This document shows, piece after piece, positions 4,845 to 47,943 of a DNA stretch of 50,873 bases; within the stretch, counting starts at the first letter, position 1; each line of letters starts with the position of its first letter. The stretch spans positions 848 to 51,720 of the forward strand of contig CAYJRY010000003.1 in assembly GCA_964372855.1 (NCBI GenBank), in the 5' to 3' direction. This DNA is from an uncultured Gammaproteobacteria bacterium. GTDB taxonomy: Bacteria; Patescibacteriota; Microgenomatia; Levybacterales; UBA12049. A model generated the notes under the pieces. It was not told where the DNA came from. It saw nothing but the letters and a program-made list of their open reading frames with translations, and searched no databases. The position numbers were made by a program, and so were the translations under genes.

Positions 4845-5912
4845 TTAAAATTTAAGTTTCAAAAAAAACCAACGTATTTTATCTAAGAATTTATACACCT
4901 GATAAAGAAGGAAATTTACAACAAGATCATAACTTCCGATAAATTCTACAAGTTGCGGTCCATATCCTTGCTTGAATCTATGAAATCCATACCATGGATC
5001 TTTGGGGTCAGGCGTTGGGCCGAGCGAACCCCACATATCAAATCTTTTTAATCCTAATTTTTTGCCAAATTTAATTACTTCCCACATCATAAGATTTGAT
5101 GCCATAACTTCTCTATAATGAGTTGATGATGCGCCATATGGATAATAAAGAGTGTCACCATAAACAAAGACGATCCAAGCCACAAGAGGTATTGGTTGTT
5201 GGCTATTAATTTTTGGTTGATAGTTTGCTAGAAATAAATGGGCAGTGAGTTTATCTTTATCTAAATTTCCCATCTTCGATTTTCCCTGTCTCACCATCAG
5301 GCGGGTATTTTCCATTTTCCGAGGACTTAAGGCTTCCCACATCAATCTATGATAGTTTTCTGTATGCGCATAGAAGCCCTGACGTTTAGTTGTTTCTTTG
5401 GTTAGTTTTAGATACGTTTCAAATGCATCATCAGAGTTATCCTCAACTATTTTTACACCATGTTTTAGCGCAACCCTTATATTGTATCGAGTCTTAGGAT
5501 GCATATCAGCCAGCAGCTCTTGTTCACTTTTGGTAAGATCCAAGATAAAAGTATATCTTGTAAATAACGGATGCGCTGCTGGCTGCAATTTCCAATTTCC
5601 AATTTCCAATTTCCAATCATTTTGAGATTTGGGATTTGAAATTTGAGATTTTTCGATGTTTGGTTCCAATTGAATAAAAATGCATTTTTCCTGTTTTCCA
5701 ATTTCTATTAATTTAGTCAACATTTCTTTATCTGGAAGTGGGCCTTTTGGTATATAACCGATAGTCCAAGGAAGGTGGGCCTTGCCTGCCGGCAGGCAGG
5801 GGATTTTGTGAATAGTTAATTGAAAATTCTTTTCTCTAATTACTTTAATTCCTGTTTTTTGCCTAAATTCACCCCACTGCCTTGACTGAAGAGGATGTAT
5901 ATTCATAACCAT
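4845..5912 (-). CDS. FemAB-family peptidyltransferase (peptidoglycan cross-bridge formation type)
   Basis: N-terminus 'HPLQSRQWGEFRQKTG' and C-terminal 'GASSTHYREVMASNLMMWEVIKFGKKLGLKRFDMWG..GFHRFKQGYG' match the FemAB/lipid II aminoacyl-transferase pattern. Confidence 0.75.
   Translation of the reverse strand: MVMNIHPLQSRQWGEFRQKTGIKVIREKNFQLTIHKIPCLPAGKAHLPWTIGYIPKGPLPDKEMLTKLIEIGKQEKCIFIQLEPNIEKSQISNPKSQNDWKLEIGNWKLQPAAHPLFTRYTFILDLTKSEQELLADMHPKTRYNIRVALKHGVKIVEDNSDDAFETYLKLTKETTKRQGFYAHTENYHRLMWEALSPRKMENTRLMVRQGKSKMGNLDKDKLTAHLFLANYQPKINSQQPIPLVAWIVFVYGDTLYYPYGASSTHYREVMASNLMMWEVIKFGKKLGLKRFDMWGSLGPTPDPKDPWYGFHRFKQGYGPQLVEFIGSYDLVVNFLLYQVYKFLDKIRWFFLKLKF
5586..5653. repeat. Composite double heptamer array inside the FemAB-like CDS
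   Basis: (caatttc)x4 + caatcat + tttgaga|tttggga|tttgaaa|tttgaga, with the 7-nt phase kept across the junction. Translates in frame to KSQISNPKSQNDWKLEIGNWKLQ. Confidence 0.85.
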
Positions 5913-7777: not shown

Positions 7778-8479
7778 ATGAGAAAGTTTTATATTATCGC
7801 TAATTGGAAATCGAATAAGACATTATCAGAGGCTGAAGATTGGATTGAGGGATTAAAGATTAAAGATTTAGAATTAATGAGTAAAGAAGCTATTGTTTGT
7901 CCTTCATTCACAAATCTTTCAATTCTTAAATCATTAATCATTAATCACAAATCAAATATTAAATTGGGGGCGCAGGATATTTCTCCGTTTGATGAAGGAG
8001 CCTTTACTGGAGAAGTCAATGGTAAACAAATCAAAGAATTCGCTGATTATGTGATTGTTGGCCATTCAGAAAGAAGAAATAATTTTGGAGAAGACGATGG
8101 AACAGTGAATCAAAAGTTAGATCGGGCTTTAAAATATGAACTCACTCCAATATTATGTGTTTCAAATCTTGATCAAGTTCAAAGTTCAAAATTCAAAGTT
8201 CAAAGTTACAGTTCAAAGTTCAAAATTGCGGAAATAATGTTAATAGCCTACGAGCCACTCTTTGCAATTGGGTCAGGAAATCCAGATACACCAGAGAACG
8301 CAGATAAGATGGCAAAAAATATAAAAGAAATTTTAGGTGAAATTCCAGTTTTGTATGGAGGAAGCGTTGATAAAAATAATGTCAAAAGTTTTACGACTAT
8401 GCCCAATATTGATGGAGTTTTGGTTGGAAAATCTAGTCTTGATGTCAAAGAATTTACGCAAATTATTCATAACTCGTAA
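7778..8479 (+). CDS. tpiA: Triosephosphate isomerase
   Basis: ANWKSN (Lys), GHSERR (His), AYEPLFAIGSG (Glu loop) and YGGSV. The ATG at 7778 is preferred over the TTG at 7763. Confidence 0.9.
   Translation: MRKFYIIANWKSNKTLSEAEDWIEGLKIKDLELMSKEAIVCPSFTNLSILKSLIINHKSNIKLGAQDISPFDEGAFTGEVNGKQIKEFADYVIVGHSERRNNFGEDDGTVNQKLDRALKYELTPILCVSNLDQVQSSKFKVQSYSSKFKIAEIMLIAYEPLFAIGSGNPDTPENADKMAKNIKEILGEIPVLYGGSVDKNNVKSFTTMPNIDGVLVGKSSLDVKEFTQIIHNS
8175..8224. repeat. GTTCAAA heptamer array inside tpiA
   Basis: gttcaaa|gttcaaa|attcaaa|gttcaaa|gttaca|gttcaaa|gttcaaa. Encodes VQSSKFKVQSYSSKFK between the 'ILCVS' strand and 'IAYEP'. The stretch 8175-8208 matches 20003-20036 at 33 of 34 positions. Confidence 0.9.
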
Positions 8480-9566
8480 AAAACTAATTGCGATAATCCT
8501 TCTTTTTCTTTTTGTTATCTTTTTTGGAAGGCTTATTGTTGAAGTTATAAGATGGATGCCTACTTTACTTCAATATTTTTTCCAGAAAGAAATTGCCCTA
8601 CAAAAAACAGAGGAAAGGGTAAATGTGTTGTTTTTGGGAATTGGAGGAGGCAGACATGAGGGACCTCTTCTTACAGACACTATTATCTATGCAAGTATTG
8701 ACCCAGAAAAAGAAAAAGTAACACTTATCTCAATTCCAAGAGATTTGTGGATTGAGGATTTGAGAGCAAAGATAAACACAGCATATTCTTATGGGGAGGA
8801 AAAAAGAAAAGATGGTGGAATTATTCTTACAAAAACTTTAGTTTCGAAAATTTTAAATCAGCCGGTTGATTATGTCTTAAGGATTGATTTTAATGGATTT
8901 GTAAGGGCAATTGATATGGTTGGGGGCATAGATGTTGAGGTTGAGAGGAGCTTTGAAGATCAGGAATATCCAATTTCTGGTAAAGAGACTGATACTTGTG
9001 GTTTTGAGGGTGAAGAATTTGAAAAACGTGCAACCTCCAGTGCAATATTTGAAGCATTTCCGTGTCGGTATGAACATATATCATTTCAAGAAGGCATACA
9101 GCATATGGATGGAGTTACTGCTTTAAAATTTGTCCGCTCACGTCATGCAAAAGGAGTTGAGGGGACTGATTTTGCAAGAAGCAAAAGGCAGGAGTTAGTA
9201 ATACAGGCATTTAGAAATAAAGCGTTTTCTCTAACAACCCTTCTTAATCCTGCGAAAGTTATGAGTTTGTACGATGTTTTTCAAGACTCTCTTCATACAG
9301 ATATAAAACAAAGCGAATATGATGATTTTGTGAAGCTTGCTAAAAAAATGAAAGATACGAAAATAAATAATGTGGTTTTTTTCTACACAGATGCCTATTC
9401 AAATGATCCGGGGATCTTTGTTAACCCGCCGACATCTGGAGAATTTGGTAATCAGTGGGTTTTAATACCTAGAAGAGGAGCTTCAGATTTTTCAGAAATT
9501 CAGCAGCTTGTTGATTGTGAAATAAAAATAGGCAACTGCAACATAATCCCAATCCCTACACAGTGA
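8442..9566 (+). CDS. LytR-CpsA-Psr (LCP) family cell-wall glycopolymer ligase
   Basis: TM anchor, then 'VNVLFLGIGGGRHEGPLLTDTIIYASIDPEKEKVTLISIPRDLW' and 'LKFVRSRH..DFARSKRQ'. The start was moved to the ATG at 8442; the ORF-track start at 8337 lies deep inside tpiA. Confidence 0.85.
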   Translation: MSKNLRKLFITRKKLIAIILLFLFVIFFGRLIVEVIRWMPTLLQYFFQKEIALQKTEERVNVLFLGIGGGRHEGPLLTDTIIYASIDPEKEKVTLISIPRDLWIEDLRAKINTAYSYGEEKRKDGGIILTKTLVSKILNQPVDYVLRIDFNGFVRAIDMVGGIDVEVERSFEDQEYPISGKETDTCGFEGEEFEKRATSSAIFEAFPCRYEHISFQEGIQHMDGVTALKFVRSRHAKGVEGTDFARSKRQELVIQAFRNKAFSLTTLLNPAKVMSLYDVFQDSLHTDIKQSEYDDFVKLAKKMKDTKINNVVFFYTDAYSNDPGIFVNPPTSGEFGNQWVLIPRRGASDFSEIQQLVDCEIKIGNCNIIPIPTQ

Positions 9567-10554: not shown

Positions 10555-13080
<2,526 letters not shown>

Positions 13081-16259: not shown

Positions 16260-18007
16260 AAAGAATTATAATTTTGGAATATCAATATTTTTGGGTGGTC
16301 ATAGACAGTAAATGATTCATCGGCGCTTTGGTCATTAATTGAGATGTTTAAAAATGGAATCGTTGGAGGATTTTCAAACTCAGCGACTTTCCTGTATCCC
16401 AATTCTCCGTTAAAAAGCCTTTGGTAATATTTATTGGCATTATGAGAGCATTTGTCTTTGGGAAGAATCCATTTTTGACAATTTTTATAAATCCTCTGAA
16501 GTGGAGTATATAAGCGGTTGCTGGCGATAATTATATAATCTGCCTCTTGAACTTTTTGGTAAATTTCTCTCTCCAAAGAAGGATCAGACATTCCGTAAAT
16601 AGGAAGTTCCAAAGTTTTATAGATAATATTTCCACCAATCGGCATCCCATCGTCCCAATGTTCGATAGCTAGAGTTTTGTCAGAGGGAATATTTTCATAA
16701 ATCCATTCCGAGGCCAAAACACGAGTGTTTGGTCTGGTATAGATATTCATGAAAGACAAAGGCCAAACTAATAAGAAAGTATAAAGTATTAAGTATAAAG
16801 TATTAAGTATAAAATTGGATTTAATGCGATGCCTTAGATATTTATATATTTGATAAATAAAAACCGCAGCAAAAATGGCTAAAAGAGGATATAGAGGAAG
16901 CAAGTAGCGCATCCAACCAACCGCGAAGTTGCCAACGATAATGAAATAGGTTAAGAAAAATAATAATATTATAATTGTTCCATTATTCCATTGTTTCATT
17001 GTTTTATAACAGACATAAAAAATTCCTAAGAAAGAAGGCATTGCGAGTATAGGGCCTAATCCCCATAAAAACATATTTTTTAATTCGTACCAATATGGAA
17101 TTTTTCCAACATATTGTAATGTATAGGGAAAAGTGAATGCATCGTATGTCATTTTTCTTTGCTCATTACTTTGTTTCCAAAATTCTTGAAAGTCAATAAG
17201 CGCGTAAGGTTGAAATATTGCAAAAGTTATAATGGTAACAACAATAATCGTTAAACCATCAATTATTAGTCTTTTCAAAAAACTTGGCACATGTGGGAAC
17301 CAAATATGAGGCTTATGTGGTTGTTTTAGGAAAATGAGTATAAAATCAACAGTAATTGCGGCAAAAATTGCAACTACAAGAGGAATAGCACTAATTTTTG
17401 TTACAAGCGACAATCCAAAACATACACCAACAATAGCTGCGTTTTTACGTGAAGGTTTTTCATAGAATCGTATAAGTTGAAAAAGTGTAAGGGTTATAAA
17501 AAATGTCAAAAGTGTATCTACAGCATAGAAATGCGCTGTTTGGATAGGAAATACTGATATTGCATAAAAAAAAGAGGCAAGAAGTGCTACTTTACTATTA
17601 AATAATTTTTTGGCAATTAGAAAAATTATAAAAATTGTTCCAATGTCTGCGATTCCTGAGATAGCTCTTCCGACCAGATTTATTTTGTCGTAAGAAAGAT
17701 ATAAAGGGTCAAAGTTTGCTAAAAAAGACGCGGTTATTTTAAGTAAATAAAGTGGAAAATTACCATAAGCAAAAAAATGAGGATTTAATGGACTTTCAGT
17801 ACTTAAAAATTCTTCAAGACTGTTGGGAAATTCAAGAGGCATTGCAAACATTACGATCGCTCGTTCATCAGGATGAAGATGGTGACCTTGATCCCAATTT
17901 AATCCATAGAATCTTAAAAAACTAGCCAAGCAAAGTATAGCAATCAAATACAGTAATTGTATTTTGATATTATTTAGAATTTGAAATTTAGTGCTTAGGA
18001 TATTCAT
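16256..18007 (-). CDS. GT-C fold membrane glycosyltransferase (GT39-like), tandem paralog 1
   Basis: 'LRFYGLNWDQGHHLHPDE' first-loop motif. Polytopic. The C-terminal 'ADYIIIASNRLY..LFNGELGYRKVAEF..ADESFTVYDHPKILIF' is shared with the next gene. Confidence 0.7.
   Translation of the reverse strand: MNILSTKFQILNNIKIQLLYLIAILCLASFLRFYGLNWDQGHHLHPDERAIVMFAMPLEFPNSLEEFLSTESPLNPHFFAYGNFPLYLLKITASFLANFDPLYLSYDKINLVGRAISGIADIGTIFIIFLIAKKLFNSKVALLASFFYAISVFPIQTAHFYAVDTLLTFFITLTLFQLIRFYEKPSRKNAAIVGVCFGLSLVTKISAIPLVVAIFAAITVDFILIFLKQPHKPHIWFPHVPSFLKRLIIDGLTIIVVTIITFAIFQPYALIDFQEFWKQSNEQRKMTYDAFTFPYTLQYVGKIPYWYELKNMFLWGLGPILAMPSFLGIFYVCYKTMKQWNNGTIIILLFFLTYFIIVGNFAVGWMRYLLPLYPLLAIFAAVFIYQIYKYLRHRIKSNFILNTLYLILYTFLLVWPLSFMNIYTRPNTRVLASEWIYENIPSDKTLAIEHWDDGMPIGGNIIYKTLELPIYGMSDPSLEREIYQKVQEADYIIIASNRLYTPLQRIYKNCQKWILPKDKCSHNANKYYQRLFNGELGYRKVAEFENPPTIPFLNISINDQSADESFTVYDHPKILIFQNYNSL
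16779..16813. repeat. AGTATWA x5 heptamer array inside the GT-C CDS
   Basis: agtataa|agtatta|agtataa|agtatta|agtataa. Encodes part of a TM-like stretch, ILNTLYLILYTFLL. Confidence 0.8.
17973..18001. repeat. Heptamer array forming the first ~11 codons of the GT-C CDS
   Basis: tttagaa|tttgaaa|tttagtg|cttagga. Contains the core ATTTAGTGCTTAGGAT (17986-18001), related to 4285 and 19783. Confidence 0.7.
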
Positions 18008-19775: not shown

Positions 19776-19831
19776 AATTGGTATTTGGTGCTTGGGATTT
19801 ATTTAGAAATTAGTAATTAAGAATTAGTCAA
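19776..19831. repeat. 7-nt-periodic array spanning the FAD-oxidoreductase stop and the spacer upstream of the GT-C gene
   Basis: aattggt|atttggt|gcttggg|atttatt|tagaaat|tagtaat|taagaat|tagtcaa. Core ATTTGGTGCTTGGGAT at 19783-19798. Confidence 0.7.
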
Positions 19832-21106
19832 TATTAATTTTGCTACTTTTTCTCCTAACTCAACTGCGTAGTTGGTTCCCCTATCCCAAGGGTAGACTTG
19901 TTGTATATTAGCAAGGTAGACATTCTTAAGTGGTGTTTCAAATGGAGGAATAATTTTTGAATAATTGAGCGGGATTATAGGCTGAGCAAAAGGAACCTTA
20001 AAAAGTTCAAAGTTCAAAATTAAAAGTTCAAAGTTAGGATTTATCCTTTTTAGATAAGGGGTATAGACTTTTAAGAGTTCGGGAGCACTCATTTTCATAT
20101 ACGGATGGTCATAGGGAAGATAATTACCCAAATATACAATATGTTCATTATCGTAATATTTCTTATCCATAAAGTTAGTGTGTTCGACAATTGCCATTAT
20201 AGGCGAATCTTTATCGCAGATATTTAGCCAGTAAGTCCCATCTTTGAGGAATGGTTGTTTTAAACGAAGAATTAAATTGATTGCGCCTATACCCTTCAAA
20301 TTCATAAGTTTATTTTTGTAAACTTGCGGAAGATGTGGTGCAATTTTTAGGAAGTGAAATGAAGGAAGCGTTGCAATAACTTTGTCATAATTTTCCATTT
20401 TCCACCTTCCATTTTCCATTTTATACTTTATTTGTACACCAATTTCTTGCGCATCTATTTCTTCTACTTGAGTATTAAAAAAAACTTTTCCTCCTAATTT
20501 CTCGATTTTCTTAACAAGGATATTTGCGAACTCCAAAAAACCTCCTTTCGGATAACTTAAAGTTGACGTTCTTTTATTTATTCTCGCCCAAAACCATGCA
20601 AGGGAAATATCATCTTTATAATTTCCAAATTTTTTGGTAAATAGAGGATTCCATATCATTTCATAGCTACTTTTACCCATTATTTTTGGAAGAAAATCAG
20701 TAGCCTTAATATTTTCTAATGTCTGCCAAAAAGGGTTGTATTTCAAGGAAGCTAGAGCAAATGCCATACGAACACGATCAAAAATAGGCAATTTCGGAAA
20801 AGCCAGTAATGATTTTACCGAGTCTAGCTGATAAATTAAATTATTAATTAAAGTGGATGTTTTTGGACGTTTTGTAATGACTTCAAAATTTAGTTCTTTC
20901 GCTAAATTGAGCGTAGAATAGTCATTTGTAAACCAGTGATGATAATGTTTTTCCAAAGACCAATTCCATTTGGGTAATTTAAAGCCAACAGCCAATCCAC
21001 CAGGATTTTCATCTTTTTCAAATAAAGTTAAAGTATTGCCTAATTTTGATAGGTAGTAGGCTGCCGATAGTCCGGTAAAACCAGCACCAATTATTGCAAT
21101 TTTCAT
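19817..21106 (-). CDS. FAD/NAD(P)-binding oxidoreductase (amine-oxidase/PPOX/phytoene-desaturase-like fold)
   Basis: 'MKIAIIGAGFTGLSAAYYLSKLGNTLTLFEKDENPGGLA' is a dinucleotide-binding GxGxxG...E...GG motif. The length (429 aa) is typical of the family. Confidence 0.8.
   Translation of the reverse strand: MKIAIIGAGFTGLSAAYYLSKLGNTLTLFEKDENPGGLAVGFKLPKWNWSLEKHYHHWFTNDYSTLNLAKELNFEVITKRPKTSTLINNLIYQLDSVKSLLAFPKLPIFDRVRMAFALASLKYNPFWQTLENIKATDFLPKIMGKSSYEMIWNPLFTKKFGNYKDDISLAWFWARINKRTSTLSYPKGGFLEFANILVKKIEKLGGKVFFNTQVEEIDAQEIGVQIKYKMENGRWKMENYDKVIATLPSFHFLKIAPHLPQVYKNKLMNLKGIGAINLILRLKQPFLKDGTYWLNICDKDSPIMAIVEHTNFMDKKYYDNEHIVYLGNYLPYDHPYMKMSAPELLKVYTPYLKRINPNFELLILNFELFKVPFAQPIIPLNYSKIIPPFETPLKNVYLANIQQVYPWDRGTNYAVELGEKVAKLILTNS
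20003..20038. repeat. GTTCAAA heptamer array inside the FAD-oxidoreductase CDS
   Basis: agttcaa|agttcaa|aattaaa|agttcaa|agttagg. Matches the tpiA array at 33 of 34 positions on the same DNA strand, but here the gene is on the opposite strand, so it encodes NFELLILNFELF. Confidence 0.9.
20391..20418. repeat. TTTTCCA heptamer array inside the FAD-oxidoreductase CDS
   Basis: ttttcca|ttttcca|ccttcca|ttttcca. Encodes KMENGRWKMEN, which compares with 11143-11170. Confidence 0.85.
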
Positions 21107-25596: not shown

Positions 25597-27345
25597 ATGA
25601 ACCAAAATAATATTAGAAATTTTGCAATTATTGCGCATGTAGATCATGGTAAATCAACTTTAGCAGATAGACTTTTGGAATTGACGAATACTATTCCAAG
25701 AGAAAAATTAAGAGAGCAATTTTTGGACCAAAATCCAATTAGCAGACGTCGTGGAATTACTATTAAACTTGCGCCAGTTAGAATGAACTATACACTAAAC
25801 GCTACACCTTATATCCTAAATCTTATCGATACTCCTGGGCATGTTGATTTTTCTTACGAAGTTTCCCGAACTCTTGCTTGCTGTGAGGGAGCAATACTTT
25901 TGGTAGATGCAACCCAAGGAGTTCAAGCTCAAACTGTTGCTCATTTCAGAGAAGCAAAAAGGGAGAAACTAACAATAATTCCAGCAATTAATAAAATAGA
26001 TTTAGCAAGTGCTAATGTAGACTTGGTGATTAGGCAGCTTGGTGAAACTTTTGGATTTAAGAAAGAAGAGATCCTCCTGATCTCTGCCAAAACTGGGGAA
26101 AATGTGGATTTTTTACTTTCAGAAATCGTTAGAAAAATACCTGCACCTTCTGGTCAAAAAGAAAAACCACTTCGATCTCTCATATTCGATGCAGTATATG
26201 ATGAGTTTAGGGGTGTTGTTGCCTATGTTAGGGTGGTTGATGGTGAAGTCAAAAAAGGAGAAAGGGTCAGATTTTACCAAAACAACATAGAGTCTGAAGT
26301 TACTGACCTTGGATTTTTCACTCCGCACTTAGCGTCATCAAGTATATTATTATCTGGAGAAATAGGATATATAATAACTGGTATAAAAGATATCAAGAAA
26401 GTTAGAGTTGGTGACACTATAACAATATCAAATATCAAAAATCAAATATCAAATATAGAACCACTTCCAGGGTATAAGATTCCAAAGCCAATGGTTTTTT
26501 TTGGAATGTACCCTAGGAATACGGAAAACTATTTAAACCTTAAAGAATCTTTGACCAAATTAACCCTTAACGACACAGCCTTAACCTATAAAGAAGAATA
26601 CTCTTCGTATTTAGGAAGTGGATTTCGAGTAGGATTTTTGGGGCTTTTGCATGCGGAAATTATAAAAGACAGGATAAAACAAGAATTTAACTTGGAAATT
26701 TTACTTGCTATGCCCCAAGTTTTATATGAAAGGATAGGAGATAAAATACTAGAACCATATATGAAGCTGAACGTATATACCCCAAAGCAATATTTGGGAG
26801 ATATTATGAATATATGTCAAAATAAAAAAGGCCAGTTATTAGATATAGCTTATTATGAAAGTTTTGTTCGTATAATTTATGACATGCCTTTTTCTATGTT
26901 TATACGAGGACTTTCATCAGACCTTAAGTCAGCCTCAAATGGATTTGCAAGTATCGATTACGAGCTTACCGACTATAAAGAAGCAGATCTTGTAAGAACT
27001 GAAATAAAAGTGAATGATGTGGTAATTGATGTATTCTCCGAACTAGTTTATAAAGATGAGGCACAATTTGTCGCAAGGGCAAAAACAGAAAAACTAAAAC
27101 ATACTCTTCCTCGTCAGCAATTTAGACAGATTATTCAGGGAGTGGTAGATGGAAATATTGTTGCCAGATCAGAAATTCCTCCTTTTAGAAAAGATGTTTT
27201 ACAAAAAATGAGTGGCGGAGATAGGAGAAGAAAAGATAAACTTCTGGAGGCTCAAAAGAAAGGTAAATCTCGGTTAATTACTCATGCCAAAATCTCAATT
27301 CCCCAAGAAGCACTAATGACAATGATTGAAAAAAATAAAATATAA
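25597..27345 (+). CDS. lepA: Translation elongation factor 4 (LepA)
   Basis: 'NIRNFAIIAHVDHGKSTLADRLLE', 'DTPGHVDF' and 'NKIDL' form the G domain. The LepA-specific C-terminal domain includes 'LYERIGDKILEP'. Confidence 0.95.
   Translation: MNQNNIRNFAIIAHVDHGKSTLADRLLELTNTIPREKLREQFLDQNPISRRRGITIKLAPVRMNYTLNATPYILNLIDTPGHVDFSYEVSRTLACCEGAILLVDATQGVQAQTVAHFREAKREKLTIIPAINKIDLASANVDLVIRQLGETFGFKKEEILLISAKTGENVDFLLSEIVRKIPAPSGQKEKPLRSLIFDAVYDEFRGVVAYVRVVDGEVKKGERVRFYQNNIESEVTDLGFFTPHLASSSILLSGEIGYIITGIKDIKKVRVGDTITISNIKNQISNIEPLPGYKIPKPMVFFGMYPRNTENYLNLKESLTKLTLNDTALTYKEEYSSYLGSGFRVGFLGLLHAEIIKDRIKQEFNLEILLAMPQVLYERIGDKILEPYMKLNVYTPKQYLGDIMNICQNKKGQLLDIAYYESFVRIIYDMPFSMFIRGLSSDLKSASNGFASIDYELTDYKEADLVRTEIKVNDVVIDVFSELVYKDEAQFVARAKTEKLKHTLPRQQFRQIIQGVVDGNIVARSEIPPFRKDVLQKMSGGDRRRKDKLLEAQKKGKSRLITHAKISIPQEALMTMIEKNKI
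26425..26459. repeat. ATATCAA heptamer array inside lepA
   Basis: atatcaa|atatcaa|aaatcaa|atatcaa|atataga. Encodes ISNIKNQISNIE between GDTIT and LPGYK. The 21-mer at 26432-26452 is identical to 47919-47939. Confidence 0.9.
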
Positions 27346-31587: not shown

Positions 31588-31589
31588 AA

Positions 31590-31617
31590 ATATCAAAAAT
31601 TAAATATCAAATATCAA
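31590..31617. repeat. ATATCAA-type heptamer array starting 3 nt after the groEL stop
   Basis: atatcaa|aaattaa|atatcaa|atatcaa. Confidence 0.8.
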
Positions 31618-31620
31618 AAA

Positions 31621-45981: not shown

Positions 45982-47913
45982 ATGGGAAAAATTATTGGAA
46001 TAGATTTAGGTACTACCAATTCATGCGTTGCGGTAATGGAGGGTGGAGCTCCCAAAGTCATCCATTCACTAGAGGGAAGGAATGTAATTCCTTCAGTTGT
46101 TGATCCTATAAGCCATATAGTTGGTGACGTTGCAAAACGCCAGTTAGTTCTAAAGCCTAAGCGAACAATTTTCTCTATAAAGCGATTGATGGGTCGTAAG
46201 CTTACTGATCCGTCGGTTCAGTTTGACATGAAATGGCTTCCTTATACGATCAAATCAGGCCGCGATGGAATGGCAGTTGTTGAGGTTGAAGGAAGAACAT
46301 TTACTCCACAGGAGATTTCAGCAATGATTCTTCAGAAAATAAAAGGCGATGCTGAGAGTTATTTGGGCGGAAAAGTTACACAAGCAGTCATTACAGTTCC
46401 TGCGTATTTTGACGATTCTCAGCGTCAAGCTACCAAACAAGCTGGGGAAATTGCAGGACTTGAGGTTTTAAGAATTATTAATGAGCCCACAGCATCAGCT
46501 TTAGCTTATGGACTTGACAAGAAAAATGCCCATACAGTTGCTATATATGATTTGGGTGGAGGAACTTTTGATATCTCTGTTCTTGAGTTAGGTGAAGGAG
46601 TATACGAGGTAAAATCAACAAATGGAGATACACATTTAGGCGGAGATGACTTTGATCAGGTAATTATAAATCATATTGCAGAAGAGTTCAAAAAGCAAAA
46701 TGGTATCGACCTAAGAAAAGACCCTCAAGCTTTACAAAGACTTCGAGAATCTGCGGAAAAAGCAAAAATTGAATTGTCAAGTTCTCAGCAAGCAGAAATC
46801 AATCAGCCATTTATAACTCAAGGAAAAGAAGGTCCTCTACATCTTACAATGACTTTAACTCGTGCCAACCTTGAGAAATTAGTGGATCAGCTTATTCAAA
46901 AAACACTTAAACCAGTTGAGCAAGCATTAAAAGATGCGAAAATAACAGCGTCAGACATTGATGAGGTCGTATTGGTTGGCGGAATGACTAGAATGCCAAA
47001 GGTGATTGAGGTTGTTTCAAAGTTTTTTGGCAAAGAACCCAATAAATCAGTTAATCCAGATGAGGTTGTCGCAGTTGGCGCAGCAGTCCAAGCAGGCGTA
47101 TTAGGAGGAGAGGTAAAAGACGTGTTGCTATTGGATGTGACTCCTTTGACTTTGGGAATTGAAACATTAGGCGGAGTTTCAACACCTTTAATTTCTAAAA
47201 ACACAACAATCCCAACTTCTAAATCTCAAGTATTCTCAACTGCGGGAGATAACCAAACCCAAGTTGAGATAAATGTTTTGCAAGGTGAGCGTCCAATGGC
47301 AATTGATAACAAAAGCCTAGGAAGGTTCATATTAAGTGGTATTCCGCCAGCGCCACGTGGTATTCCTCAAATTGAAGTAACTTTTGATATTGACGCAAAT
47401 GGGATTTTAAATGTGAAAGCAAAAGATAAAGCAACTGGGAAAGAACAAAGCATCAAGATTACTGGTTCAACAGGTCTTTCTAAAGATGAAGTTGAAAGAA
47501 TGACCAAAGAGGCAGAAGCTCATGCCGCTGAGGATCAACAGAAGAAAGAAAAAATTGAAGCAAGAAATGCAGCAGATTCATTAATTTTTACCGCAGAAAA
47601 ATCAATTAAAGATGCGGGAGATAAGATTGACATAGGTGCTAAGAAAGAAGTTGAGGAAAAGATTTCTTCTCTCAAATCCATTCTTGATAGTGGTACAAAA
47701 GAAGATTTAGAGGCAAAGACAAAAGATCTGTCAGATAGTCTTCAAAAAATTGGTCAGGCAATGTATGGCTCATCGCAACAGACAACTCCCAACAACCAAC
47801 AAACAACAGGAGATAGTCAACAAGGCCCGGGAACTGGTGAACAAAAAACTGAAGGAAAGGGAGAAAAGAAAAAAGACAAAGACGAGCCGATTGAGGGCGA
47901 AGTAGTGAACTAA
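45982..47913 (+). CDS. dnaK: Molecular chaperone DnaK (Hsp70)
   Basis: '[13 protein letters not shown]', 'DLGGGTFD' and '[10 protein letters not shown]'. 643 aa. Confidence 0.97.
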
Positions 47914-47918
47914 ATTAA

Positions 47919-47939
47919 ATATCAAAAATCAAATATCAA
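47919..47939. repeat. ATATCAA-type heptamer array 6 nt after the dnaK stop
   Basis: atatcaa|aaatcaa|atatcaa, identical to lepA nt 26432-26452. Confidence 0.85.
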
Positions 47940-47943
47940 AATG

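Follow-up and report, generated by a model that had tools for sequence, protein, structure and literature searches.

Heptanucleotide repeats are reported to be the most abundant class of long simple sequence repeats (SSRs) in most genomes (Mrazek 2007, as cited in PMC4679880 and PMC4692102), and ~7 nt was proposed to be the length of DNA that contacts the polymerase, which would favour slippage (Mrazek et al. 2007, as cited in PMC4679880 and PMC4692102). The cyanobacterial short tandemly repeated repetitive (STRR) sequences of Calothrix and Nostoc, the GGGAATC repeats of Xanthomonas and the GGGGAYT repeats of Nostoc all consist of head-to-tail 7-nt units, show an excess of period 7 and occupy many loci; as far as these sources report, they are also patchily distributed among lineages and markedly prefer about four units (PMC4692102; Mrazek 2007, as cited in PMC4679880), a preference that has been attributed to G-quadruplex (G4) formation (PMC4692102). 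In Geobacter metallireducens, four tandem GGGACCG units are present at 49 intergenic and intragenic sites (Aklujkar et al., PMC2700814), and the marine Beggiatoaceae carry TAACTGA repeats, including intragenic ones that are translated as LSVISYQ repeats in the stop-free orientation (MacGregor, PMC4679880). No explanation has so far been agreed on for the four-unit or so heptamer repeats noted in Cyanobacteria, Xanthomonas, Geobacter and Beggiatoaceae. The STRR consensus units CCCCAGT, TTGGTCA and CAACAGT are mainly intergenic. Here, we analyze a 50,873-nt stretch of contig CAYJRY010000003.1 (hereafter the window), from an uncultured bacterium of the GTDB lineage Levybacterales, in which the triose-phosphate isomerase gene (tpiA) and the gene of a flavin adenine dinucleotide (FAD)-dependent oxidoreductase share a 34-nt heptamer array that is read in opposite senses. 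We conclude, with a probability that we put at about two in three, that each of the two sequences was inherited vertically and independently of the other, as part of a population of heptanucleotide arrays that spans the lineage and is lodged in tolerant loop slots; the matching stretch is a by-product of this repeat class, and there is no demonstrable transfer between the two genes.

The original prediction had reported that positions 8175-8208 (AAGTTCAAAGTTCAAAATTCAAAGTTCAAAGTTA) of the + strand gene tpiA match positions 20003-20036, within a minus-strand gene, at 33 of 34 positions, and it had given the two translations; matching and translation confirmed all of this. The identity is on the same DNA strand and is translated in opposite senses, as QVQSSKFKVQSY in TpiA (in context ...QVQSSKFKVQSYSSKFKI...) and as NFELLILNFELF in the oxidoreductase (...PNFELLILNFELF...). 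The sole mismatch is a C->A difference at 20022, and the window contains no further copy of the 34-mer with up to three mismatches. A chance origin of the match is ruled out, as 100 shuffles gave no match at all. The tpiA gene (7778..8479, + strand; longest open reading frame, ORF, from 7763) encodes 233 aa from the ATG at 7778, and its close database matches all belong to PF00121; the amine-oxidase-like oxidoreductase gene (19817..21106, - strand) encodes 429 aa with Amino_oxidase/DAO/NAD_binding_8 assignments. In tpiA the array extends over 8175..8224 (+ strand; slot 3 in the numbering used below), where it encodes QVQSSKFKVQSYSSKFK, residues 133-149 of TpiA, and consists of (GTTCAAA)×4.7, with ATTCAAA as its third unit, followed by TAC-A and two further units; Tandem Repeats Finder (TRF) assigned it period 7, 7.3 copies and 86% matches. 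The array of the oxidoreductase (slot 2; 20002..20035, - strand) reads AACTTTG AACTTTT AATTTTG AACTTTG AACTTT on the sense strand, and TRF assigned it period 7 and 4.9 copies. Our own run finder agreed for both arrays (8175-8207 and 20002-20035).

These two arrays are members of a larger set. The run finder, which detects self-similarity at an offset p, picked out 13 arrays of ~31-34 nt across the window at p=7; every other offset between 4 and 12 gave none or one, and the mean over 100 first-order Markov simulations was 0.01 period-7 arrays. All of the 13 except one lie in frame within ORFs, and no tRNA, tmRNA or Rfam element was found to account for an array. Since 2.54 same-unit pairs are expected among the 13 from the unit frequencies of other genomes and three were seen, the sharing of a unit by the tpiA and oxidoreductase arrays is what chance predicts. 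The match itself is of little significance and is not evidence of gene-to-gene transfer. The part of the original prediction that ascribed the identity to a cause at the level of DNA, rather than to protein convergence, was borne out, in that the identity is a property of heptanucleotide tandem repeats.

The homologs of TpiA place the window in a genome of the Levybacteria/Levyibacteriota (Microgenomates, Candidate Phyla Radiation, CPR). A search for close relatives of the window genome yielded at best 65% identity for TpiA and 72% for the oxidoreductase, and at such distances recent events are beyond dating. Our comparison set of 80 syntenic Levybacteria loci (1.30 Mb in total, one genome scanned per species; designated below by L numbers) contained 208 period-7 arrays, against 0-14 at each other period. 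Their density ranged from 0 to 11 per 10 kb and their occurrence was patchy, with about 30 loci free of arrays in up to 20 kb each; L004 (from CP066685.1) represents the array-rich genomes and L060 (from OZ246394.1) the array-free ones. Window and loci together provided 221 arrays, or 218 once L011, which is near-identical to L009, had been removed. The lengths of the 221 are sharply peaked at 30-34 nt, with a mode of 31 (4×7+3), and their 88 canonical units are AT-rich. ORFs hold 203 of the 218 arrays (~93%), which is roughly proportional to the ~95% of the sequence that ORFs cover; the few intergenic arrays have the same length as the coding ones, and no preference for positions toward gene starts or ends was found, the spread of the arrays tracking coding density. 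Head-to-tail units of 7 nt, an excess of period 7, a copy number of about four and patchy lineages, all features of heptanucleotide long SSRs, were therefore found together in these genomes.

Protein alignments of five genes across the loci placed 169 of the arrays in 20 recurrent slots. Within one slot, the genomes hold different but related units in the same register, 1-2 bases apart. For example, the unit of tpiA slot 3 is GTTCAAA in the window, L001 and L005, ATTCAAA in L006, CTCAAAA in L003 and ATTAAAA in L009-L011, and all of these arrays share a layout of ~4 units, TTAC-A and ~2 units; slot 5 of the DUF2298 gene has ATTTCAA, ATTTGCG, ATTTCGA, ATTTCGG and ATTTGGA. Between L012 and L024, which have 85% DNA identity, orthologous arrays are mostly equal in length, and in 20 of the 37 array differences at least two units have undergone an identical change at the corresponding position of the unit (null mean 8.5, P=0.0008), as in a FemAB slot that reads ATTTGAA throughout in the one and ATTTGCC throughout in the other. 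This pair also differs by in-frame array indels, one of 21 nt (3 units) and another of 24 nt. These comparisons show that arrays persist in their slots across speciation, with all units of an array undergoing the changes of the 7-nt unit in concert, and that in many slots, although not in all, the length is unchanged during the turnover of the unit. About half of the slots are equally long with or without an array (tpiA 1 and 2, oxidoreductase 1 and 2, FemAB 1), and others are 6-14 residues longer with one (tpiA 3, FemAB 3 and 4, DUF2298 4 and 6). The original prediction had set against itself the case of a repeat-less ortholog with the same residues at these positions, and part of this case is seen in the array-free locus L018, where non-periodic DNA at tpiA slot 3 still encodes QVISAKLQLQSYGSKAK; this slot looks like a decayed array.

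These arrays are best read as part of a class of bacterial heptanucleotide repeats, resembling STRR sequences and long SSRs, that is known but still poorly understood. The published repeats of this kind are G-rich, mostly intergenic and scarce in coding regions; in contrast, those of the Levybacteria are AT-rich, form no G4, lie predominantly in ORFs, are read through three frames, occupy slots that are conserved across species and have a CPR host. Cyanobacterial STRR sequences in the strict sense can be set aside, given the Levybacteria host, the different, AT-rich units and the ~93% intragenic location. That AT-rich, non-G4 arrays have the same copy-number preference argues against G4 as a general explanation of it. 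The Geobacter elements are similar in that four to five tandem heptamers recur at many sites, between genes and within them, sometimes several per gene (PMC2700814); they are built from one or two dominant units (GGGACCG at 49 sites and MTYCTGA at 15) and have been read as regulator-binding or RNA elements (PMC2700814), whereas the Levybacteria arrays use at least 88 units and show turnover of the unit at a fixed site. The TAACTGA repeats of the Beggiatoaceae, present also in some Cyanobacteria and Bacteroidetes, likewise occur as 2-6 direct copies, some in ORFs where stop codons dictate the orientation, but they have a single unit, lie mostly just upstream of start codons and have been proposed to be transferred horizontally (PMC4679880). 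The arrays studied here, by contrast, have many units, are mainly intragenic and are inherited vertically slot by slot. Borg genic repeats reportedly have units that are multiples of three and can form long arrays. They can be regarded as a functional analogue, since they too are A-enriched, fast-evolving, flanked by partial repeats, of local origin and situated in conserved hotspots of homologous proteins, where they encode low-complexity or disordered segments (PMC9879509). Borg repeats are under strong selection and encode perfect amino-acid repeats (PMC9879509); the arrays studied here have 7-nt units, are capped at ~4.5 units and are carried by bacterial chromosomes. No description of heptamer repeats in CPR bacteria was found in the literature, nor any of the combination of AT-rich, nearly all intragenic arrays with conserved slots and an often length-preserving concerted turnover. 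Such slots offer a natural system for the study of repeat-templated mutation and of protein-loop tolerance, and annotators of CPR genomes will repeatedly meet the arrays as loops of low complexity and low confidence and as DNA matches that spuriously link unrelated genes.

The phenomenon of short heptamer arrays reaches well beyond the Levybacteria. We assembled a metagenome set (L081-L200, 761 kb) of at least 120 contigs that carry an exact 33-nt AAGTTCA array; their diversity is inferred from their gene content and their GC range (31-69%). Their array lengths have a mode of 33-35 nt, period-7 arrays number 245 against at most 25 at any other period, and the other, non-selected period-7 arrays of these contigs again peak at ~30-34 nt. 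In-frame examples include AQVQSSKFKVQSS in a large membrane protein of L110 and EESSKFKVQSSKF in a 795-aa ORF of L096. Scans of viral contigs for 31-nt arrays gave 11 matches for AAGTTCA, 6 and 3 for two controls of the same composition and 3 for AAATTTC. Hence, AAGTTCA is only mildly favoured and no particular unit is required. Period controls in the same viral contigs gave 19 matches for a hexamer array and none for an octamer, a result that is uninformative on the exclusivity of period 7 because in-frame hexamers abound in viruses.

The arrays are translated. Each 7-nt unit shifts the reading frame by one, three units make a 7-residue peptide repeat and all three frames are used. Only 2 of the 67 perfect coding arrays have a unit whose sense strand includes a stop codon, compared with 69 of the 138 imperfect ones, and on the antisense strand the unit of 141 of the 205 coding arrays contains a stop. 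Where the unit is prone to stops (e.g., ATTGAAA or TTTGAAC), one off-pattern base occurs exactly where a TGA would be in frame. The mismatch at 20022 (- strand) is such a stop-escape base: with the tpiA version of this base the oxidoreductase frame would read PNFEL*ILNFELF, and the difference turns the would-be in-frame TGA into TTA (Leu). The same TGA has been escaped differently in the orthologs, by TGC in L201 and L203 and by TTC in L202. These observations show that selection holds the frame open by fixing one off-pattern base at would-be stops.

The oxidoreductase array has a history of its own. The 13-residue segment that it encodes has the same length throughout the 26 aligned orthologs and in ~85 of the 120 homologs from the database, and slot 2, taken with two alignment columns on each side, has 17 residues in 26/26 orthologs, array or none. 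Since orthologs with and without an array have the same length, the segment is not an insertion, and insertion into the oxidoreductase is ruled out. In keeping with this, the insertion boundaries and target-site duplications that the original prediction had proposed to define by ortholog alignment did not emerge; the length of the oxidoreductase segment was constant and no target duplication was seen. The corresponding arrays of three orthologs are AACTTTG AACTTTG CATTTTG AACTTTG AACTTTT in L201 (P0122, 72% identical), GACTTTG AACTTTT CATTTTG AATTTTG AACTTTT in L202 (P0157, 67% identical) and GATTTTG AATCTTG CATTTTG AACTTTG AACTTTT in L203 (P0181, 65% identical). All three, like the window, have a T at the third position of unit 3 (Ile codon ATT), and this variant is therefore ancestral at the slot. 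With both the array and its third-unit variant ancestral in L201-L203, recent copying from tpiA into the oxidoreductase is ruled out. The array-less orthologs end in ...TTTGAACTTTT, and distant non-periodic ones end in GGT TTT GAA CTT TTC (GFELF), so that the AACTTTG/TTTGAAC unit of the window was already seeded by native sequence. In L024 the other end of the segment has been amplified, as (AACTATC)×4.7, which encodes NYQLSTINYQLF.

In tpiA, the corresponding site of L001, L005 and L006 carries GTTCAAA and ATTCAAA arrays of the same layout, the orthologs with a GTTCAAA-type array being 57-63% identical to the window's protein. Two TpiA sequences (P0009 and P0012, 62% identical) have the same peptide at the array site, as QVQSSKFKVQSYSSKFKV and QVKSSKLQVQSYSSKFKV, and distant Levybacteria orthologs have ...DSYVNRGRQIIGRSEE... 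there; slot 3 is about as long, at 37 residues, as in the distant orthologs (34). The TAC that interrupts the array aligns with a Tyr (its own codon product) found in most TpiA orthologs. To judge from these alignments, the slot 3 array is ancestral. The G->A change in its third unit is private to the window (L001 has G), and is most simply read as a GC->AT transition that arose independently at one of ~10 G/C sites. The AlphaFold model of the window's TpiA (mean predicted local distance difference test score, pLDDT, 85; predicted template modelling score, pTM, 0.86) shows an ordinary TIM barrel apart from residues 141-151, whose pLDDT falls below 50, and residues 137-149 are modelled as coil. 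The array-encoded residues (133-150) are predicted to lie between strand 123-128 (PILCVS) and strand 155-158 (IAYEP, with the catalytic Glu), in agreement with the placement that the original prediction had given them from sequence. We take this position to be that of helix 4 in canonical TIM barrels.

For this pair we infer a local origin of each array. The slots of tpiA and the oxidoreductase carry complementary versions of one heptamer (GTTCAAA/TTTGAAC), the oxidoreductase unit probably having grown from the ancestral local sequence TTT GAA CTT TT (FELF), and a class-typical length together with one coincident G->A transition would then give the identity of 33/34. Periodicity would be produced and kept up by repeat-templated errors of replication, in line with the polymerase slippage that Mrazek et al. 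(2007) proposed for heptanucleotide repeats, and translation would act as a filter. During replication the nascent strand would transiently mispair one unit (7 nt) out of register, copy the base of the neighbouring unit and then realign; such transient misalignment would give templated substitution, and homogenisation without a change in length, on top of which rare in-frame 21-nt slippage products would become fixed. Misalignment with realignment is favoured because net changes of ±7 nt would destroy the genes. Blocks of two unit types within one array are common (e.g., GAAATTC ×2 followed by GAAACTC ×2.5 at 11360-11392), and such blocks, alternating units with period 14 and parallel substitutions in adjacent units are all as copying from unit to neighbour predicts. 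We speculate that the cap near 4.5 units might arise because 31 nt leaves 24 nt of out-of-register homology, longer arrays being lost by unequal exchange; in Escherichia coli, RecA-dependent recombination has a minimal efficient processing segment of close to this length. Arrays are patchily distributed and occur in decayed form in array-free lineages, which suggests that the process is modulated by some lineage-specific factor.

Several observations weigh against this reading. The misalignment mechanism is inferred, not observed, its length-preserving step is hypothetical, and simple slippage by ±7 nt would frameshift these genes. Local misalignment gives no account of why the unit has 7 nt rather than 6, 8 or 9, nor of the ~4.5 units. 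The coincident third-unit G->A in tpiA would, by our own estimate, have a chance of about 1 in 10 if independent. Different slots of the same genome share a canonical unit in 19/362 pairs (5.2%), vs 290/12467 (2.3%) for pairs from different genomes, a ~2.2-fold excess (permutation P=0.0025); events confined to single slots would not lead one to expect it, except where composition or unit preference varies from genome to genome. Finally, L004 (CP066685.1) has the unusual unit CTATACG at tpiA slot 3, at oxidoreductase slot 2 and at DUF2298 slots 6 and 7. This comparatively GC-rich unit (peptide NYTLYAIRYTL) also recurs in L003, L012 and L071, and of all the observations its recurrence hints most strongly at a spread of units between slots or at their preferential generation.

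The last three of these points are also what ectopic gene conversion or copying between the array slots of one genome would lead one to expect, whether as a recent event, from the oxidoreductase to tpiA over a short tract, or as an ancient seeding; the third-unit base of tpiA, private to the window, is after all the base of the oxidoreductase array. We nonetheless regard such conversion as unlikely for this pair. The array type and the variant of the oxidoreductase are older than the window's lineage, so that the variant cannot serve as a donor-derived marker, and the stop-escape base is private to the oxidoreductase copy. L010 and L203 (P0181) appear, from the shared length of their contigs (94,433 nt), to be one genome, and there an oxidoreductase array of the same AACTTTG type is paired with a different tpiA unit, ATTAAAA. 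Same-unit pairs in the window do not exceed the chance expectation, 7-nt units offer very little homology for recombination between different units, and the sharing of units could also stem from genome-specific base composition. The opposite-strand reading on which the original prediction had laid stress is not special, since 6 of the 19 within-genome same-unit pairs across loci are likewise read in opposite senses. Equal-length orthologs, ancestral arrays and unit sharing at chance level thus leave its proposal of spread between the two genes, by insertion or recent gene conversion, unsupported; conversion or a genome-specific preference for units may contribute to the array class as a whole. 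One might go further and imagine that the lineage has an active process of its own by which tracts of ~31-33 nt are rewritten in a 7-nt register and keep their length, with fixed slots continually homogenised and re-seeded and units sometimes copied between them. We consider this doubtful. If true, it would generate hypervariable disordered loops in conserved housekeeping and envelope proteins; the four-unit rule would be the mark of a molecular ruler in replication, in repair or in an unknown enzyme, not of G-quadruplexes or of the binding of a regulator; and, judging from the metagenome contigs, the process would operate in other lineages as well.

Independent vertical descent also has to be set against three explanations of other kinds. 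Two in-frame insertions of a miniature mobile element of ~33 nt, comparable to miniature inverted-repeat transposable elements (MITEs), Rickettsia palindromic elements or small dispersed repeats (SDRs), would fit the greater length (by about 10-14 residues) of FemAB slots 3 and 4 and of DUF2298 slots 4 and 6 in array-bearing orthologs and the exact 33-nt AAGTTCA array of at least 120 metagenome contigs with 31-69% GC, and these genomes do contain GC-rich mini-palindromes of a truly insertion-like kind. Both the Rickettsia palindromic elements and the SDRs of Nostoc, the latter associated with Elhai et al. (2008), are palindromic or hairpin insertions with defined ends and are similarly short DNA-level repeats tolerated in frame in conserved genes. 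The heptamer arrays, unlike them, contain no inverted repeat or hairpin; the DNA folds of the two arrays of this pair do not surpass those of shuffled sequences (z +1.9 and +0.45), and neither array has terminal inverted repeats, a target-site duplication or flanking direct or inverted repeats. No ortholog differs in length at the oxidoreductase slot, the flanks of 105 good arrays are without a conserved motif or information content, the 88 canonical units are not a few element families, units of one slot differ by 1-2 bases in register, and arbitrary control heptamers form 31-nt arrays in the viral collection too. For this pair, the mobile-element explanation is largely refuted, and we hold it to be very improbable. 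Selection for a functional nucleic-acid signal, recognised for instance by a heptamer-binding OB-fold or cold-shock-type protein or by another regulator, could account for the way in which periodicity and the ~4.5-unit length are kept while the sequence changes; four-unit heptamers have been proposed to be regulatory in Geobacter (PMC2700814), in Xanthomonas and Nostoc (PMC4692102) and in the Beggiatoaceae (PMC4679880), and CspB is stated to bind heptamer repeats (PMC4679880). Such a signal would nevertheless have to comprise 88 unrelated units in both orientations relative to transcription, with no preferred position relative to gene starts or ends, no secondary structure and no Rfam match, and the arrays decay in some lineages without loss of the gene; we consider it quite improbable. 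The chance of an assembly or sequencing artefact, chimeric or collapsed, is negligible: assemblers can be misled by short repeats and the source of the window is a metagenome assembly, but the arrays preserve long ORFs, are shorter (34 nt) than a sequencing read and have orthologs at the same sites in dozens of independent assemblies from different projects. A phase-variable contingency locus was rejected in view of the housekeeping nature of the genes (TpiA, LepA, FemAB-family and others), the imperfection of the arrays and the conservation of layout and frame across orthologs of 55-72% identity.

The remaining arrays of the window are distributed over several genes. Within tpiA itself, TRF detected a decayed period-7 array (GATTAAA), outside the 13, in slot 1 (7851..7887, + strand), which well-preserved arrays fill in 13 orthologs, and slot 2 (7929..7964, + strand) holds an AATCATT array that encodes KSLIINHKSNIK. 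Slot 1 of the oxidoreductase (20390..20422, - strand) has the sense-strand unit GGAAAAT, the same as at 11142-11172, and encodes KMENGRWKMEN. A FemAB-family gene (- strand) contains two adjacent arrays, at 5586-5617 (CAATTTC, perfect) and 5621-5651 (TTTGAGA), and the DUF2298 membrane-protein gene (- strand) contains four, at 11142-11172, 11360-11392, 11729-11760 and 11961-11990, adjoined by an A-rich repeat of period 8 or 17 at 11077-11137. There is a further array (AATATCA) in lepA (26424..26456, + strand), and an intergenic one (AAATATC; 31588..31618) lies immediately 3' of the groEL stop codon. The array in a PMT_2 glycosyltransferase gene (16776..16810, - strand) has alternating units and hence also period 14 (AAAGTAT/TAAGTAT), and a weaker array likewise outside the 13 (AAATCAA; 47912..47941, periods 7 and 14) begins at the dnaK stop codon. 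Alternating two-unit variants of this kind (e.g., AAGTATA/AAGTATT and ATTCTTG/ATTCTCA), observed at 16776-16813, at 47912-47941 and in the FemAB slot of L030, suggest copying in steps of two units.

A different sort of element is present in the FemAB-family gene, where a 21-nt GC-rich palindromic mini-insert, CCTTGCCTGCCGGCAGGCAGG (5780-5800, minus strand), encodes CLPAGKA. Of 66 orthologs, none but the window and L021 have it at this site; it forms a hairpin of -10 kcal/mol, and its 14-nt palindrome core, GCCTGCCGGCAGGC, recurs in unrelated contexts in L052, L070 and L098. It has the look of a very small mobile element inserted in frame, in which it differs from the heptamer arrays, and it resembles the Rickettsia and Nostoc repeats mentioned above. 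GC-rich inserts of 21-24 nt, such as CTCGCCCTGAGCGAAGCCGAAGGG and GCCCGCTTCGCCGCGAGGCGA, are also seen inside heptamer arrays, or in their place, in DUF2298 and neighbouring genes of L012 (at the ortholog of L024:10067-10098) and L030 (at the orthologs of L012:2607-2634 and L012:6389-6422), and are missing in relatives that are 83-85% identical; they are reminiscent of the small dispersed repeats of Nostoc.

The ORF downstream of tpiA (8337-9566 in its longest form) shares ~140 nt with the 3' end of tpiA. The true start of this gene is probably located 3' of the tpiA stop codon, and its predicted product, judged by sequence alone, looks like a LytR/Cps2A-type protein.

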